Shown here piece by piece: positions 50,169-64,000 of a stretch of 64,000 nucleotides of DNA (position 1 is its first letter; each line of letters opens with the position of its first letter). Source of the stretch: Alphaproteobacteria bacterium (GTDB taxonomy: Bacteria; Pseudomonadota; Alphaproteobacteria; MPNO01; UBA830); the NCBI GenBank assembly GCA_965243135.1, contig OZ251539.1, positions 3,392,001 to 3,456,000 of the forward strand, written 5' to 3'. The notes under the pieces were generated by a model that worked only from the letters and a program-made list of their open reading frames with translations, ran no database searches and was not told the DNA's origin. Both the position numbers and the translations under genes were made by a program.

Positions 50169-50203
50169 TTGACGGCTCCGGCGCGGCGGCCTACTCTCTC
50201 CGG
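50169..50203 (+). promoter_or_regulatory. Sigma70-like leaderless promoter
   Basis: TTGACG-17bp-TACTCT-6bp-ATG(50204); no SD. Confidence 0.6.
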
Positions 50204-51737
50204 ATGGCGAAACGCATGCTTCCGACCGGCATGACCTCCCTCCGGAAAATCCGGACGAGGGACTGCTATTACGTCGACAAGACAGACCATGTGCGCCGCC
50301 TCGTCGAAGGGGGCGATTACTACTTTCTGTCACGTCCGCGCCGGTTCGGCAAGACCCTTCTGGTGGACACCCTGCAGAAACTGTTCGAGGGAAGCGAGGA
50401 GCTGTTCCGGGGCCTCGCCGTGCACGGCAAGTGGGACTGGTCGGCGCGCCACCCGATCGTGCGGCTCAGCTTCAGCAGGGGCAATTTCGTCGTCCCGGAC
50501 GGGGTTCGGATAACCGTGGAAAGACAGCTGGCGGCGGCGGAGAGGCGCGCGGGCCTCGAACCGGGGCCCGCCGAGGCCTCGAACCGTTTCGGGGAATTGA
50601 TCGAGGCCCTGCACGAGCGCACCGGGCGGCAGGTGGTCGTTCTGGTGGACGAGTACGACAAGCCGATCCTGGACGCGCTCGGCGACCGGGAACTGGCGCG
50701 GGCCAACCGGGACTTCCTGCGCAGCCTGTACGGGGCGATCAAGGACTGCGACGAGCAGCTCCGTTTCGTTTTCCTGACGGGGGTGAGCAAGTTCTCGCGA
50801 GCGGGCATTTTCTCGGGCCTGAACAATCTGAACGACATCACGCTGGACGAGCGCTACGGTGCCCTTTGCGGCTACACGGACGACGATCTGGACGCGGTCT
50901 TCGCCCCGGAACTGGAGGGCCTGGACCGGGACGAGATCCGCCGCTGGTACAATGGCTACAACTGGCTCGGGCCGGAAAGAGTCTACAACCCGTTCGACAT
51001 CCTGCTGCTGTTCGACAAGCGCGATTTTCGCCCGTACTGGCTCCAGAGCGGCACGCCGACCTTCCTCGCCGACCTTCTGTCGCGGCGCCGGTTCGCGCCG
51101 CCGGCCCTGGAGGGCATGTTCGCGGACGACGACCTGCTTTCGGCCGTCGACGTCGACCGCATCCCCATCGAGGCGCTTCTGTTCCAGACCGGCTACCTGA
51201 CCATCGTCGGCGAGAAGCGGGACGAGGACGCGCGCCTCTACCAGCTGGACTACCCCAACCAGGAGGTGAAGCGCAGCCTGAACGCGCTCCTGCTGGAGGC
51301 GATTGCGCCGGGCGTCGCGGTCGCGGCGGGGAGCCAGGAGCTGCGCCGCCTGATGCGCGCGAACGACTTCGCGGGCCTCGAGAATCTGTTCCGGGCGTTC
51401 CTGGCGAGCATCCCGAACGAGTGGTACGCGAACACGGGCATGGCGGGGGCGCACTACGCGAGCGTGCTCGCACTTCGTGGCGGCGGGGATGGACGTCCGC
51501 GCCGAGGAGAGCACGGCGCGCGGCCGCTCGGACCTGACGGTCCTGTACAACGGCAACGTCTATCTGTTCGAGTTCAAGGTCGCGGACGGGAAGCCGCAAG
51601 GCCGGGCTCTGGCGCAGATTCGGGAGCGCGGCTACGCGGACAAGCACCGGAGTCCGGGCGTGCCGGTCCACCTGATCGGGGTGGAGTTCGGCCGGGAGGA
51701 GCGCAACATCGTCGGGTTCGAGTTCGAGACCGTCTGA
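50204..51737 (+). pseudogene. AAA-ATPase-like + PD-(D/E)XK nuclease, copy 1, frameshifted before the nuclease domain
   Basis: YYVDKT, RPRRFGKT, LVDEYDKP; relative to copy 2 a 6-bp and a 5-bp deletion near 51445-51467; GRSDL..FEFK lies in another frame (51477..51737). Confidence 0.85.
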
Positions 51738-51977
51738 AGCCGGGAGCCGGACGGGCTGGACGTCCCGTCCGGACATTTCGAACGGTCGAACCGCTTCAAC
51801 GAAAGGCGTCGCCCGCGTCGCGGGGACTGGCCCGTCGCGCGTTTCGTCGGAAACGACCTATGCCTCAGCGGAAATCGCCGCGGCGCGGCGCGCGCACCTC
51901 GTCCGCAGGAAACGAATTGAAACCGCCATCGCGTTGCGGTAGAAGAACCGGCAGGAAACTCCCAGGAGACAGCCGAG

Positions 51978-52892
51978 ATGCGCGTCAGCCAGAAGGTCAG
52001 GCAAATCCTGGCCGGATACGAAAGCGACAACCCCGGCACCAAGACTTCGCTTGCCCGGATCCTGATGCAAGGACGCCTCGGCGGCACCGGAAAACTTGTC
52101 GTCCTGCCGGTCGACCAGGGTTTCGAGCACGGACCGGCGCGCAGCTTCGCGCCCAACCCGGCCGGATACGATCCCCACTATCATTTCCAGCTCGCCGTCG
52201 ATGCCGGCCTCTCCGCCTACGCCGCCCCGCTCGGCATGCTGGAAGCGGGAGCGGACAGTTTCGCCGGAGCCGTGCCGACCATATTGAAGTGCAATTCGGC
52301 GAACTCCCTCGCGACCAACAAGGACCAGGCGGTGACCGCGTCCATCGGCGACGCGTTGCGGCTCGGCTGCGCGGCGATCGGATTCACGATCTATCCGGGA
52401 TCGGACGACCAGTACGAACTGATCGAGGAAATCCGCGAACTCGCTGAAGAGGCCAAGTCCGTCGGCCTCGCGGTGGTCGTCTGGTCGTATCCGCGCGGCG
52501 GCGTCCTCGACAAGACGGGCGAGACCGCGGTCGACGTCTGCGCCTACGCGGCGCACATGGCGGCGTTGATCGGCGCCCATATCATCAAGGTCAAGCCGCC
52601 GACCGAGACCGTCTTCCTGGACGCGGCCGCCATGTCTTACGAGTCGATTCCGGTCGCGACTCTCGCGCAGCGCATCGAACACGTGGTCCAGTCGTGCTTC
52701 GCCGGCAAGCGCCTGGTCGTGTTCTCCGGCGGCGAGGCGAAGGACCCGGAAGGGATCTTCGACGAGGTCCGCGCCATTCGCGACGGCGGCGGGAACGGCT
52801 CCATAATCGGCCGCAACACGTTTCAACGTCCGAGAGAGGACGCGCTGAAGATGCTGGACACGATCGTGTCCATCTACGAATTGTCTGCGTAA
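51978..52892 (+). CDS. fbaB: Class I fructose-bisphosphate aldolase (DhnA/FbaB type)
   Basis: LPVDQGFEHGP, GFTIYPGS, WSYPRG, GAHIIKVK, VFSGG, GSIIGRN.FQR. Confidence 0.94.
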   Translation: MRVSQKVRQILAGYESDNPGTKTSLARILMQGRLGGTGKLVVLPVDQGFEHGPARSFAPNPAGYDPHYHFQLAVDAGLSAYAAPLGMLEAGADSFAGAVPTILKCNSANSLATNKDQAVTASIGDALRLGCAAIGFTIYPGSDDQYELIEEIRELAEEAKSVGLAVVVWSYPRGGVLDKTGETAVDVCAYAAHMAALIGAHIIKVKPPTETVFLDAAAMSYESIPVATLAQRIEHVVQSCFAGKRLVVFSGGEAKDPEGIFDEVRAIRDGGGNGSIIGRNTFQRPREDALKMLDTIVSIYELSA

Positions 52893-52953
52893 TACTCTAG
52901 ATAACTCATTTCCTGCCGCGCTGAAGATGCTGGACACGATCGTGTCCATCTAC
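52841..52953. repeat. 37-bp perfect direct repeat separated by a 39-bp AT-rich insert
   Basis: CGCGCTGAAGATGCTGGACACGATCGTGTCCATCTAC at 52841-52877 and 52917-52953. Confidence 0.95.
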
Positions 52954-52972
52954 AGGGACGAGGCCTGACCGC

Positions 52973-53608
52973 ATTCGCGCGGAATCCTGCCAGCTCTACC
53001 TGGTTACCCCGCCGCGGCTTCCCGACCCGGTCCGGTTCCGCGATTCGCTCGCCGCCGCGCTCGACGGCGGTCCGATTGCGTGCGTTCAGCTTCGCCTCAA
53101 GGAAGCGACGGACGACGAGATTCGCGCGGCGACCGACCTTCTGCGCGACGTCGTCCGGGACCGCGACGTCGCCTTCGTCCTGAACGACCGCCCCGACCTC
53201 GCGGCCGAACTCGGCTGCGACGGCGTCCACGTCGGCCAGGACGACGCGCCGTGCGCCGAGGCGCGGCGAACCGTGGGCGAGGACGCGATCGTCGGCGTCA
53301 CCTGCAAGGCGTCGCGGCACCTGGCCCTAGAGGCCGGCGAGGCCGGAGCCGACTACGTGGCGTTCGGCGCGTTCTTTCCCTCCGCGACCAAGCCCGCGAC
53401 CACGCCCTCCGCCCCTGAAATCCTCTCGTGGTGGCAGGAGATGACGACGATGCCCTGCGTCGCGATCGGCGGCATAACGGTCGATAATTGCCCGGCGCTC
53501 GTCGAAGCCGGAGCCGACTTCCTCGCCGTCGCCTCGGGCGTCTGGAACCATCCCGCAGGGCCGGCCGCCGCGGTTCGCGCCTTCGAAGTCCGAATGCGGG
53601 AAGGATAG
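52973..53608 (+). CDS. thiE: Thiamine phosphate synthase; start codon uncertain (ATT?)
   Basis: [52 protein letters not shown]; frame open from 52925 with no ATG/GTG/TTG until 53273. Confidence 0.9.
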
Positions 53609-53633
53609 GCGCGCCCGCCGACGCGCAACCGCC

Positions 53634-54632
53634 TCACGACGCGGTCGCCCACAGGACGTCTTCGATCCGCGGCGCGCCCGTCGCAAGCATCGCCAGCCGG
53701 TCGAAGCCGAGCGCGATTCCGGCGCATTCCGGCAGGCCGCGACCGAGCGCTTCGAGGAAATCGTCGTCGACCGGGTAAACGGCCTGGCCGAGACGGGCGC
53801 GGCGCCCGGCCCATTCCGCGAACCGGCGGCGATGTTCGCCCGGGTCGGTCAGCTCTCCGTAGCCGTTGGCGAGTTCGAGTCCGCAAATGAAGATTTCGAA
53901 GCGCTCGGCGACGCTCGGGTCGTCGGGGTCGAGCCGCGCGAGCGCCGCCATCGGCGCCGGGTAGGAGTGCAGTATCGCGGGCGCGCCGGTTCCGAGAAAC
54001 GGCTCGACGCGGTCGAGGAAGATGCGAAAGAAAACGTCTTCCCAGGAATCGGACGGGGCGGTGCGCAGCCCGATCGTCCGGGCGGCGGCGCGCAGGCCGT
54101 CGACGTCGCCGGCCTCGCCGAGGTCGACATCCGCGTGGCGGCGAAACGCTTCGGCGACCGACACGAACTCCCAGGGAGCCGACAGGTCGCACGCGCTGCC
54201 GTCGCGGCGGACCTCGGGACCGGCCAGCGTCCGGACGAGATCCCTCGCCTCGCAAGCGACATCGCGCCACGAGGCGCCGGTCCGATACCACTCGAGCATG
54301 GAGAATTCGGGATGGTGCTTCGCCGACGAATCTGCGTCGCGAAACACCCGGGCAAGCTGCCATATCCGTTCCATCCCCCCGGCGAGCAGTTTCTTCATCG
54401 CGAATTCCGGCGAGGTGTGCAGATAACGAACCGAGCGGTCGCCGGCGACGATCTCGAAGGCGGAGAGATGGGGTTCGAGTCCGGGCGACGCCTGAAGCGC
54501 GGGCGTCTCCACTTCGGTATAGCCGCGCGCGTCGAAAAACGGGCGAAGCATCCGGATCATCTCGGCGCGGCGCCGCAGCGCCGGGCGGCGGGCGGCGAGC
54601 CGCGAAGGCTCCCACCAGGCGGATTCAGTCAT
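53634..54632 (-). CDS. epmA: EF-P lysine aminoacylase EpmA/GenX
   Basis: EVETP.LQ.SPG.EPHL, YLHTSPEFAMKKLL, HHPEFSMLEWYR, ELANG, GIALGFDRL. Confidence 0.94.
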   Translation of the reverse strand: MTESAWWEPSRLAARRPALRRRAEMIRMLRPFFDARGYTEVETPALQASPGLEPHLSAFEIVAGDRSVRYLHTSPEFAMKKLLAGGMERIWQLARVFRDADSSAKHHPEFSMLEWYRTGASWRDVACEARDLVRTLAGPEVRRDGSACDLSAPWEFVSVAEAFRRHADVDLGEAGDVDGLRAAARTIGLRTAPSDSWEDVFFRIFLDRVEPFLGTGAPAILHSYPAPMAALARLDPDDPSVAERFEIFICGLELANGYGELTDPGEHRRRFAEWAGRRARLGQAVYPVDDDFLEALGRGLPECAGIALGFDRLAMLATGAPRIEDVLWATAS

Positions 54633-55072: not shown

Positions 55073-55257
55073 GAGGTCTGAAATCAATGGCTCGATTGGC
55101 ATTGCATCGCCTTGCCCGGCGTTGTTCGACGATGCCGATGAACGCTCCAGGAAGGAAATTCAAGAAAACCGCATTCAGCGGGTTAGGGGAGATTTCCGCG
55201 GAACCGCGCCAGCTTGATGGCAGCGGAGCATGCATAATGCCGATCGAGCCAATTCAA

Positions 55258-55293
55258 TTGACCGTTTCCGTTGCGGCGGCCTATTCTAACCGA
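55258..55293 (+). promoter_or_regulatory. Sigma70-like leaderless promoter
   Basis: TTGACC-18bp-TATTCT-6bp-ATG(55294); homologous to 50169-50203. Confidence 0.6.
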
Positions 55294-56835
55294 ATGAAAA
55301 AACGCATGCTTCCGATCGGGATGACCTCCCTCCGGAAAATCCAGAGGGAGGACTGCTACTACGTCGACAAGACGGACCTTTTGCGCCGTCTCGTCGAAGG
55401 TGGTCAGCACTATTTTCTGTCGCGCCCGCGCCGGTTCGGCAAGACCCTGCTTGTGGACACGCTGCAGGAGCTGTTCGAGGGAAGCGAGGAGCTGTTCCGG
55501 GGCCTCGCCGTGCACGGCAAATGGGACTGGTCGGCGCGCCACCCGGTCGTGCGGCTGGATTTCGGCGGGGGCGATTTCGGCGACCCGGACGGGGTTCGGG
55601 AAGAAGCGGAATCGCAACTGAAGGCGGCGGAGAGGCTGGCCGGCATCGAGCCGGGCAGCGCCAGAGTTTCGATCCGCTTCCGGGAACTGATCGCGGCCCT
55701 GCACGAGCGCACCGGGCAGCGGGCGGTCGTGCTGGTGGACGAATACGACAAACCGATCCTGGACGCGCTCGGCGACCGGGAACTGGCGCTGGCCAACCGC
55801 GACTTCCTGCGCAGCCTGTACGGGACGATCAAGGCCTGCGACAGGCATCTCCGTTTCGTTTTTCTGACGGGGGTGAGCAAGTTCTCGCAGGCGGGAATTT
55901 TCTCGGGCCTGAACAACCTGAACGACATCACGCTGGACGAGCGCTACGGCGCCCTCTGCGGCTACACGGACGCGGAGCTGGACGCGGTCTTCGCCCCGGA
56001 ACTCGAGGGCCTGGACCGGGAGGAGGTCCGGCGCTGGTACAACGGCTACAACTGGCTCGGACCGGAGAGGGTCTACAACCCGCACGACATCCTGCTGCTG
56101 TTCGACAAGCGCAGATTCCGCCCGTACTGGTTCCAGACCGGCACGCCGACCTTCCTCGCCGACCTTCTGGCGCGGCGCCGGGTCGCAGCGCCGGCCCTGG
56201 AGGGTCTGGTCGCCGGCCACTCGCTGTTGTCGGCCATCGACGTCGACCGCATTCCCGTCGAGGCGCTGCTGTTCCAGACCGGCTACCTGACCGTCGTCGG
56301 CGAAGAGCGGGACGAGGATACGCGCCTCTACCAGCTGGACTACCCGAACCAGGAGGTGAGGCGCAGTCTGAACGCGCTTCTGCTGAAAGCAATGGCGCCG
56401 GAGGTCACGGTCGCGGCGGAGAGCCGGGAGTTGCGCCGCCTGATGCGGGCGAACGACTTCGCGGGCCTCGAGAATCTGTTCCGGGCGTTCCTGGCGAGCA
56501 TCCCGAACGAGTGGTACGCGAACACGGGCATGGCCGGCTACGAGGCGCACTACGCGAGCGTGTTCTACTCGCACTTCGTGGCGGCGGGGATGGACGTCCG
56601 CGCCGAGGAGAGCACGGCGCGCGGCCGCTCGGACCTGACGGTCCTGTACGGCGGCGTCTACCTGTTCGAGTTCAAGGTCGCGGACGGGAAGCCGGAAGGA
56701 CGGGCGCTGGCGCAGATCCGAGAGCGCGGCTACGCGGACAAGTACCGGCGTCCGGGCGTGCAGGTCCACCTGATCGGCATCGAGTTCGGCCGGGAGGAGC
56801 GCAACATCGTCGGGTTCGAGTTCGAGACCGTTTGA
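55294..56835 (+). CDS. AAA-ATPase-like + PD-(D/E)XK nuclease, copy 2, intact
   Basis: LPIG, YYVDKT, Walker A RPRRFGKT, Walker B LVDEYDKP, FLTGVSKF, YPN.EV, GRSDL..FEFK..AL.QI..RGYA.KY. Confidence 0.92.
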   Translation: MKKRMLPIGMTSLRKIQREDCYYVDKTDLLRRLVEGGQHYFLSRPRRFGKTLLVDTLQELFEGSEELFRGLAVHGKWDWSARHPVVRLDFGGGDFGDPDGVREEAESQLKAAERLAGIEPGSARVSIRFRELIAALHERTGQRAVVLVDEYDKPILDALGDRELALANRDFLRSLYGTIKACDRHLRFVFLTGVSKFSQAGIFSGLNNLNDITLDERYGALCGYTDAELDAVFAPELEGLDREEVRRWYNGYNWLGPERVYNPHDILLLFDKRRFRPYWFQTGTPTFLADLLARRRVAAPALEGLVAGHSLLSAIDVDRIPVEALLFQTGYLTVVGEERDEDTRLYQLDYPNQEVRRSLNALLLKAMAPEVTVAAESRELRRLMRANDFAGLENLFRAFLASIPNEWYANTGMAGYEAHYASVFYSHFVAAGMDVRAEESTARGRSDLTVLYGGVYLFEFKVADGKPEGRALAQIRERGYADKYRRPGVQVHLIGIEFGREERNIVGFEFETV

Positions 56836-63420: not shown

Positions 63421-63869
63421 ACTTGTCCACTGCACAAGTCGCCCGACGCCGCGGAACATGTCCACTGCGCAAGTTGACAGGGACCGGATCGCCCAGGCCG
63501 GTGACCAAGTCGACCACCCAACGGGAAGCTTGTTCACTGCACAAGTCGGCGACGGCCGTGCCAACTTGTCCACTGCACAAGTCGCCCGACGCCGCGAACA
63601 TGTCCACTGCGCAAGTTGACAGGGACCGGACCGCCCAGGCCGGTGACCAAGTCGACCACCCAACGGGAAGCTTGTTCACTGCACAAGTCGGCGACGGCCG
63701 TGCCAACTTGTCCACTGCACAAGTCGCCCGACGCCGCGGAACATGTCCACTGCGCAAGTTGACAGGGACCGGACCGCCCAGGCCGGTGATCAAGTCGACC
63801 ACCCAACGGGAAGCTTGTTCACTGCACAAGTCGGCGACGGCCGTGCCAACTTGTCCACTGCACAAGTCG
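63421..63869. repeat. Tandem array: three 142-143-bp units built from about 36-bp subunits with palindromic core ACTTGT-CCACTGC-ACAAGT
   Basis: Units start at 63421, 63564 and 63706, with a final core at 63849; CAAGT(C/T)G recurs every 34-36 bp from 63399. Confidence 0.93.
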
Positions 63870-64000
63870 AGGCGCTTACCGAACTGATGGAAATGCACAG
63901 CATGATCTTGGTGCGCTGCAACTTACTGCGCCACCTGACAAACGCTCATGATCGGTGCCTGCTCGCCCCGTAGCATGTAACTGGTGGTTTTGCTGGTGTC

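Follow-up and report, generated by a model that had tools for sequence, protein, structure and literature searches.

A probable off-target CRISPR spacer integration at the 3' end of an alphaproteobacterial fbaB gene

Results and Discussion

A repeat-insert-repeat unit ends the fbaB reading frame

In the 64,000-nt stretch of DNA that we analyzed (the window), an fbaB-like class I aldolase gene ends in a 39-nt AT-rich insert that is flanked on both sides by the same piece of native fbaB coding sequence (Table 1). From sequence comparisons we consider it likely that this unit was created by off-target, full-site integration of a spacer-sized fragment through the Cas1-Cas2 pair linked to the type III-B CRISPR system of the same genome. 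Ectopic Cas1-Cas2 spacer integration, giving a neo-CRISPR unit, had been proposed in an earlier sequence-only reading of this DNA, and the array geometry, read coverage and empty sites described below all support that proposal. We file the fbaB unit as a presumed integration scar and not as a functional CRISPR array.

The structural claims of the earlier reading were confirmed from the sequence. The direct repeat is exact over 37 nt, with a start-to-start spacing of 76 nt, and the outer bases at both of its ends are unmatched, so that 37 nt is the maximal repeat length. Each copy contains a perfect 18-nt palindrome, TGGACACGATCGTGTCCA, which is imperfect in the other aligned species. The insert between the copies is AT-rich as had been stated, with a GC content of 0.38 compared with 0.65 for the genome. 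The exchange of the FbaB tail from RDEA to ELSA with no change in length was likewise borne out when we translated the live frame, which ends in IYELSA and a stop, and the orphaned copy, in which the frame of copy 2 runs on to IYRDEA and a stop. The repeat and the insert are each found nowhere else in the 6.10-Mb single-contig genome. An Rfam search of positions 51500-54000 returned nothing meaningful, with one match at an E value of 0.83.

We scanned the whole genome for isolated 37-nt repeat pairs, requiring at least 34/37 matches and unmatched flanks and applying a low-complexity filter. Only 13 such pairs were found over spacings of 57-106 nt. Isolated units of this type and size are thus rare in the genome, which argues that the fbaB unit is no chance match.

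Table 1. Features of the fbaB 3'-end unit and CRISPR loci of the genome. Positions are those of the window unless marked as genome positions.
Feature	Position	Strand	Description
fbaB-like class I aldolase gene (DeoC/LacD family)	51978..52892	+	304 aa, ends in IYELSA and stop; PF01791, E 7e-28
Presumed target-site duplication, copy 1	52841..52877		Native fbaB coding sequence; palindrome 52855-52872; single in relatives and metagenome strains
Insert (putative spacer)	52878..52916		39 bp, GC 0.38, foreign-looking; codes ELSA tail, TAA stop at 52890-52892
Presumed target-site duplication, copy 2	52917..52953		Outside the fbaB reading frame; second palindrome 52931-52948
Orphaned original fbaB end (RDEA and TGA)	52954..52968	+	In frame with copy 2
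thiE (thiamine-phosphate synthase)	52973..53608	+	211 aa, ATT-start ORF; PF02581, E 2e-57
Array A1, type II-C (Cas9, Cas1, Cas2)			Repeat 36 nt; spacers 30 nt (113/114 of 29-31 nt, one of 27 nt)
Array A2, type III-B (Cmr2, Cmr3, Cmr4, Cmr6/1, CARF-HEPN, Cas1, Cas2)	genome 5284180-5287867		Repeat 37 nt
Array A3, type I-E (full Cascade, Cas1e, Cas2e)			Repeat 28 nt; spacers 33 nt
I-E-period mini-arrays	genome 385672, 973349, 1912721 (=1922849), 2208565, 2510624, 2545732, 2742314-2742950, 2992257, 4477871, 5621020		

The fbaB unit has the dimensions of a resident III-B-linked array

The genome contains three cas1 genes and three large arrays, and each of its systems (II-C, I-E and III-B) comes with a cas1-cas2 pair. 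Among the three arrays, the 37 + 39 dimensions of the fbaB unit fit A2 only. All 48 repeats of A2 are identical, and its 47 spacers measure 37-44 nt, with a mode of 41 nt and with 7/47 spacers of 39 nt. The array lies directly behind the Cmr2/3/4/6-1 genes, a CARF-HEPN gene, Cas1 and Cas2. The III-B Cas1 is intact, as judged by a full-length match to PF01867 (E 8e-84), and Cas2 matches PF09827 (E 7e-21); both genes (genome 5282667-5283985) are located ~200 bp upstream of A2. The comparison of the unit with the genome's own arrays and cas1, which the earlier reading had proposed as a check of spacer integration, came out in its favor, with an intact cas1-cas2 pair adjoining an array of exactly 37-nt repeats.

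At 0.38, the GC content of the fbaB insert is lower than in any of the 47 A2 spacers, where the minimum is 0.40. Its length of 39 nt is below the modal spacer length. Identity between the A2 repeat and the fbaB duplication is at chance level, with 11/37 and 10/37 identities counted by eye in the two orientations. On the minus strand the fbaB duplication starts with GTAGA, and the duplications at two further sites described below start with GTGGA (site 2) and GTCGC (site 3), so that each shares 4/5 positions with the GTCGA of the A2 repeat; for a random site the probability of such a match is ~0.09. This repeat-end match is only 2/5 at site 4, and by eye there is no GT at either end of site 5.

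We infer the acting enzyme from this geometry, and the order of cuts given here is likewise a reconstruction. An integrase loaded with a 39-bp foreign fragment would have cut the fbaB 3' end once on each strand, at points separated by 37 bp, which is the distance that the integrase would normally measure across its own 37-nt repeat. Gap repair would then have copied the 37 bp onto both sides of the fragment, and the outcome would be a one-spacer 'neo-CRISPR' unit in which the repeats are fbaB coding sequence. The unit may have survived because the insert supplies four codons and a stop, thereby keeping the length of the aldolase with ELSA in place of RDEA, and copy 2 would preserve the native sequence ahead of thiE.

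Units of similar geometry recur at unrelated targets

Four of the 13 isolated 37-nt pairs have spacings of 75-77 nt (75, 76, 76 and 77). At site 2 (genome 5399736-5399846), a 36-nt duplication flanks a 39-nt insert with a GC content of 0.33. The gene here has no Pfam family and is broken by the unit into two ORFs, of 159 and 451 aa. Exactly those 75 nt are absent from a paralog at 351584-352619 that is 97-98% identical. The length of the duplication at site 2, 36 bp rather than 37 bp, speaks against our reading. Site 5 (genome 2242318-2242426) consists of a 37-nt duplication and a 35-nt insert, although three shared nucleotides also permit a 34 + 38 parse; it lies in frame within an 890-aa ORF, to which it adds 24 residues. 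The insert at site 5 is an exact copy of genome positions 565156-565190, and the paralog of this gene at 2964789 is empty. Site 3 (genome 2822593) has the 37 + 39 geometry with two mismatches and a spacing of 76 nt, and its minus strand starts with GTCGCAATGCG, similar to the start of the A2 repeat; our search for an empty-site comparator of site 3 found none.

The targets and inserts of these recurring sites are unrelated to each other, and the two 39-nt inserts are mutually unrelated. Site 4 (genome 5486219; 36-37 + 40, spacing 77) was set aside as ambiguous since its insert closes with sequence similar to the upstream flank, and the unit may be a diverged tandem duplication. Pairs at 1915579/1937344 belong to a dispersed repeat family and were not counted as integration units, and further repeat pairs at 5962652, 3805635 and 3808912 were left without an explanation.

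The earlier reading had also proposed a search of viral, plasmid and metagenomic DNA for a protospacer of the 39-mer, and here the outcome was negative: phages, plasmids, and viral, genome and metagenome contigs yielded no source. With blastn against small databases the best phage match was to a Staphylococcus phage at a chance level (E 0.04, 85% over 34 nt), and the best plasmid match had an E value of 6. When viral, genome and metagenome contigs were scanned for the exact 39-mer, each set gave 0 matches; a diverged protospacer would escape this type of search. The same phage, plasmid and contig searches gave no source for the insert of site 2, for which matches to Shigella plasmids are at a chance level (E 6). 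Neither of the two 39-nt inserts has a source in the genome itself, where shared words reach 13 nt at most. The whole A2 array also found no match among phages, and there was therefore no phage to examine for near matches.

Mini-arrays with the I-E period contain self-derived spacers

When the genome was scanned with 28-nt windows, 26 repeat pairs were detected at the I-E period of 61 bp as compared with 0-3 at each of 49 other spacings. The pairs at the 61-bp period are spread over about ten to twelve loci (Table 1) that have 2-11 repeats per mini-array. The 28-nt repeats of these mini-arrays are locus-specific but have a central GCGCGCGG-like core in common. By their period and repeats the mini-arrays look like I-E neo-CRISPR units, and misplacement of spacers is apparently common in this genome.

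Copies in the host chromosome were found for 10/16 singleton spacers and for 4/11 spacers of the mini-array at 2742xxx. For the canonical arrays the counts are 0/114 in A1, 0/47 in A2 (full-length copies) and 2/77 in A3, or 2/238 in total. AA precedes 4/10 of the full-length ectopic protospacers, with ~3% expected at the GC content of the genome. Self-derived spacers are expected to survive only where they are unused for interference.

The two A3 spacers with host matches, at 5304541 and 5304663, match positions 4133743 (33/33) and 5244043 (28/28), respectively, with GAA preceding both matches. These two spacers represent possible self-targeting. Separately, an orphan array of four repeats is present at genome 4812991-4813200, far from cas genes, with a 61-bp period and a repeat that is near the canonical I-E repeat.

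Cas-independent repair or another integrase as the origin of the unit

A Cas-independent repair accident could in principle produce a unit of this type, either through capture of filler DNA at a staggered double-strand break or through template switching during replication provoked by the palindrome. A perfect 18-bp palindrome could form a cruciform or stall replication, and a source-less insert agrees with such an accident. We nonetheless regard this explanation as improbable, as it offers no reason for 36-37 bp duplications to have arisen three times with inserts of 35-39 nt, nor for these duplications to have the length of a resident repeat. The units with a 61-bp period fit the I-E array just as exactly, which points to the rulers of integrases.

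Integration by a different Cas1-Cas2, that is by the II-C module with its 36-nt repeats or by a mixed complex, is in our view quite improbable. The presence of three cas1 genes would allow for this, and the II-C repeat, at 36 nt, is near 37 nt and just as long as the site 2 duplication. However, II-C spacers are nearly all 29-31 nt long (Table 1) compared with 39, 39 and 35 nt for the ectopic inserts, and a scan at the II-C period (63-69) detected no convincing isolated unit, the six matches being tandem or coding repeats or members of a dispersed family. The I-E module, for its part, makes 28 + 33 units.

The insertion is absent from relatives and near-identical strains

The fbaB-thiE region is present in 40/40 relatives searched. 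In three genomes of the same genus (G001, G002 and G004) the BLAST pieces of fbaB and thiE share 36-37 nt of the subject sequence, as they would with one copy there. We aligned 7 of 19 fetched loci, of which three are from the same genus, three from the same family and one from the same order. All seven have a single copy with no inserted DNA and a tail of the form IY-x-G-x-A/S followed by the stop, and in 5/7 thiE comes directly after this stop.

We also compared Logan contigs from four runs (X1, X4, X5 and X9) with positions 52500-53300. X4 is labelled as a sponge metagenome, and X5, labelled as a metagenome, belongs to another study. In each of the two, one contig omits exactly 76 nt, 52841-52916, where the 37 nt at the skip fit either side. 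Over about 710-725 nt the contigs have 4 (X4) and 10 (X5) other differences from the window, so they are ~99.4% and 98.6% identical to it. The search for empty sites suggested by the earlier reading thus had a clear result, namely a single copy without an island in 7/7 aligned relatives and contigs from two metagenomes that lack precisely one repeat plus the insert. In the sequenced organism the insertion is thus clonal, and ~98.6-99.4% identical strains lack it; from contigs of this kind no allele frequencies are obtained for the filled and empty fbaB sites. That near-identical strains and relatives carry the empty site indicates that the fbaB insertion is, on this comparative evidence, recent.

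These empty sites bear on the second explanation put forward in the earlier reading, which was that the repeats are the attL/attR pair of an integrative element at the fbaB 3' end with an interior that was later deleted to 39 bp. Integrative elements that use the 3' end of a gene as their target duplicate their att core and bring along a new end for the gene. The fbaB unit resembles them in having a direct repeat of native gene sequence and inserted DNA that provides a new end and stop, and the new FbaB tail equals the old one in length. It differs from them in that its interior is only 39 bp, no island or integrase is present at the site in any relative examined (7/7 aligned, with fbaB and thiE adjacent in G001, G002 and G004), and the same duplication length is observed at unrelated targets, around inserts of 39 and 35 nt that are likewise unrelated. 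Given a clean empty site in ~98.6-99.4% identical strains, integration and near-total deletion would both have to be very recent. Furthermore, one of the inserts copies a chromosomal stretch, which is unexplained by any site-specific recombinase. No recombinase gene was seen around the site, where the ORFs are fbaB, thiE, AAA-ATPase/PDDEXK_9 genes and a downstream ORF without a Pfam match. The att explanation is unsupported by these results, and we consider it very unlikely.

An assembly or sequencing artefact has a very small probability. Repeats of 37 nt do fragment short-read graphs into separate unitigs, and otherwise nothing favors such an artefact. X1 contains 0.99 of the sampled words (the same fraction as X2 and X3), and it has a 99-nt unitig that runs from copy 1 through the insert to copy 2 with 0 mismatches at a depth of 143. 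In X1 the 37-mer alone has a depth of 284, about twice that of the flanks (left 167, right 192), the left-flank unitig stops within copy 1, and no empty-site joint is reported among the X1 unitigs at fbaB. The short-read unitigs of X1 therefore cover the insert, both junctions and both copies, so the concern that reads might not span the structure was laid to rest, and this agreement without a mismatch argues against an assembly artefact. A 106-nt piece of the filled site is also present in X9, a different sample with the same organism label, at a depth of 2.9.

Transposons and casposons, which generate target duplications of 2-15 bp and have terminal inverted repeats and a transposase, do not fit the 37-bp duplication and the 39-bp interior that has no coding capacity. 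Neither an att scar, another Cas1-Cas2 module, a repair accident nor an artefact accounts for a ruler of 36-37 bp that recurs at targets and around inserts without any relation to one another.

Relation to known off-target integration

Off-target integration by over-expressed E. coli type I-E Cas1-Cas2, together with the birth of neo-CRISPR loci, was reportedly described by Nivala, Shipman and Church in Nat Microbiol in 2018. A preprint that cites this work calls the natural evidence 'circumstantial' and places it in two other species. Off-target spacer integration at fbaB would share with the E. coli neo-CRISPR units the presence of a spacer-sized fragment outside of arrays, a repeat-length duplication of ordinary DNA that could seed an array, and the genome's own cas1-cas2 as the presumed agent. 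Unlike the E. coli units, it would be a natural event that occurred without over-expression, it has the 37 + 39 geometry of a III-B-linked array rather than that of I-E, and it is located where the coding sequence of a housekeeping gene ends, with the empty allele persisting in near-identical strains.

Two systems studied in vitro offer further parallels. In non-CRISPR DNA, the Cas1-Cas2 complex of Pyrococcus furiosus cuts both strands at paired positions separated by the length of one repeat; these off-target cuts are at G or C, and the repeat's G1 and T2 are enriched there (PMC6698737). At fbaB, the duplication starts with GTAGA on its bottom strand as compared with GTCGA in the A2 repeat. 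The P. furiosus system differs from the fbaB unit in being archaeal with 30-nt repeats and plasmid targets in vitro, and its off-target sites are ~43% identical to the repeat (PMC6698737) in contrast to the chance-level identity at fbaB. For the type III-A Cas1-Cas2 of Thermotoga profunda, the passages at hand describe promiscuous integration in vitro that is restrained by HU (PMC13769266), and the likeness to our case lies in an adaptation module that is linked to a type III system and whose own fidelity to its target is weak. The T. profunda case differs from the fbaB unit in that it is in vitro only and of subtype III-A, and those passages mention no genomic scars (PMC13769266).

Off-target integration is itself already known, and what is new here would be a natural, polymorphic instance with III-B geometry in a genome where such events appear frequent. 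The natural record consists of a housekeeping gene that carries a unit with one spacer, and for which near-identical strains show both the filled and the empty allele, of the further units of the same geometry at sites 2 and 5, which have an empty paralog as a built-in control, and of about ten units with the I-E geometry in which self-derived spacers are frequent. A broader and more tentative idea, which we put forward as possible rather than probable, is that adaptation in this lineage is leaky, such that both the I-E and the III-B-linked Cas1-Cas2 would scatter spacer-sized fragments, many of them self-derived, into ordinary genes, and the fbaB unit would show the first step in the birth of an array, caught while still polymorphic. 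If this were true, adaptation would be a measurable endogenous mutagen, with gene ends rewritten, genes split, peptide segments added in frame and arrays seeded. The natural record described above makes the rate at which adaptation damages the host genome, the target features that attract a III-B-linked integrase and the birth of CRISPR arrays open to direct tests. For annotation, a caution is that isolated repeat-insert-repeat units within genes can be CRISPR scars.

Consequences for thiE and features of the neighborhood

thiE has no ATG, GTG or TTG start, as the first common start codon is found only at 53273. An ATT located 4 nt past the old fbaB TGA opens the 211-aa thiE ORF, and the new fbaB stop is 80 nt upstream. 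The CATTC at this position is conserved in 5/7 aligned relatives, and ATT is the likely start of thiE. The position of ATT 4 nt after the old stop together with the conservation of CATTC suggests that the start of thiE is coupled to termination of fbaB. Copy 2 keeps an ATG-started mini-ORF that ends at the old fbaB stop. Located near the ATT start, the fbaB unit may have altered the translational coupling of this vitamin-synthesis gene.

Paralogous AAA-ATPase/PDDEXK_9 genes at 50200-51737 and 55087-56835 flank fbaB-thiE and the downstream gene in direct orientation. A frameshift divides the upstream copy, leaving the nuclease end as an 86-aa ORF of its own at 51477-51737, and the downstream copy is intact. 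At about 63421-63870 of the window (genome 3455421-3455727 onward) there are at least three tandem copies of a 142-143-nt unit.
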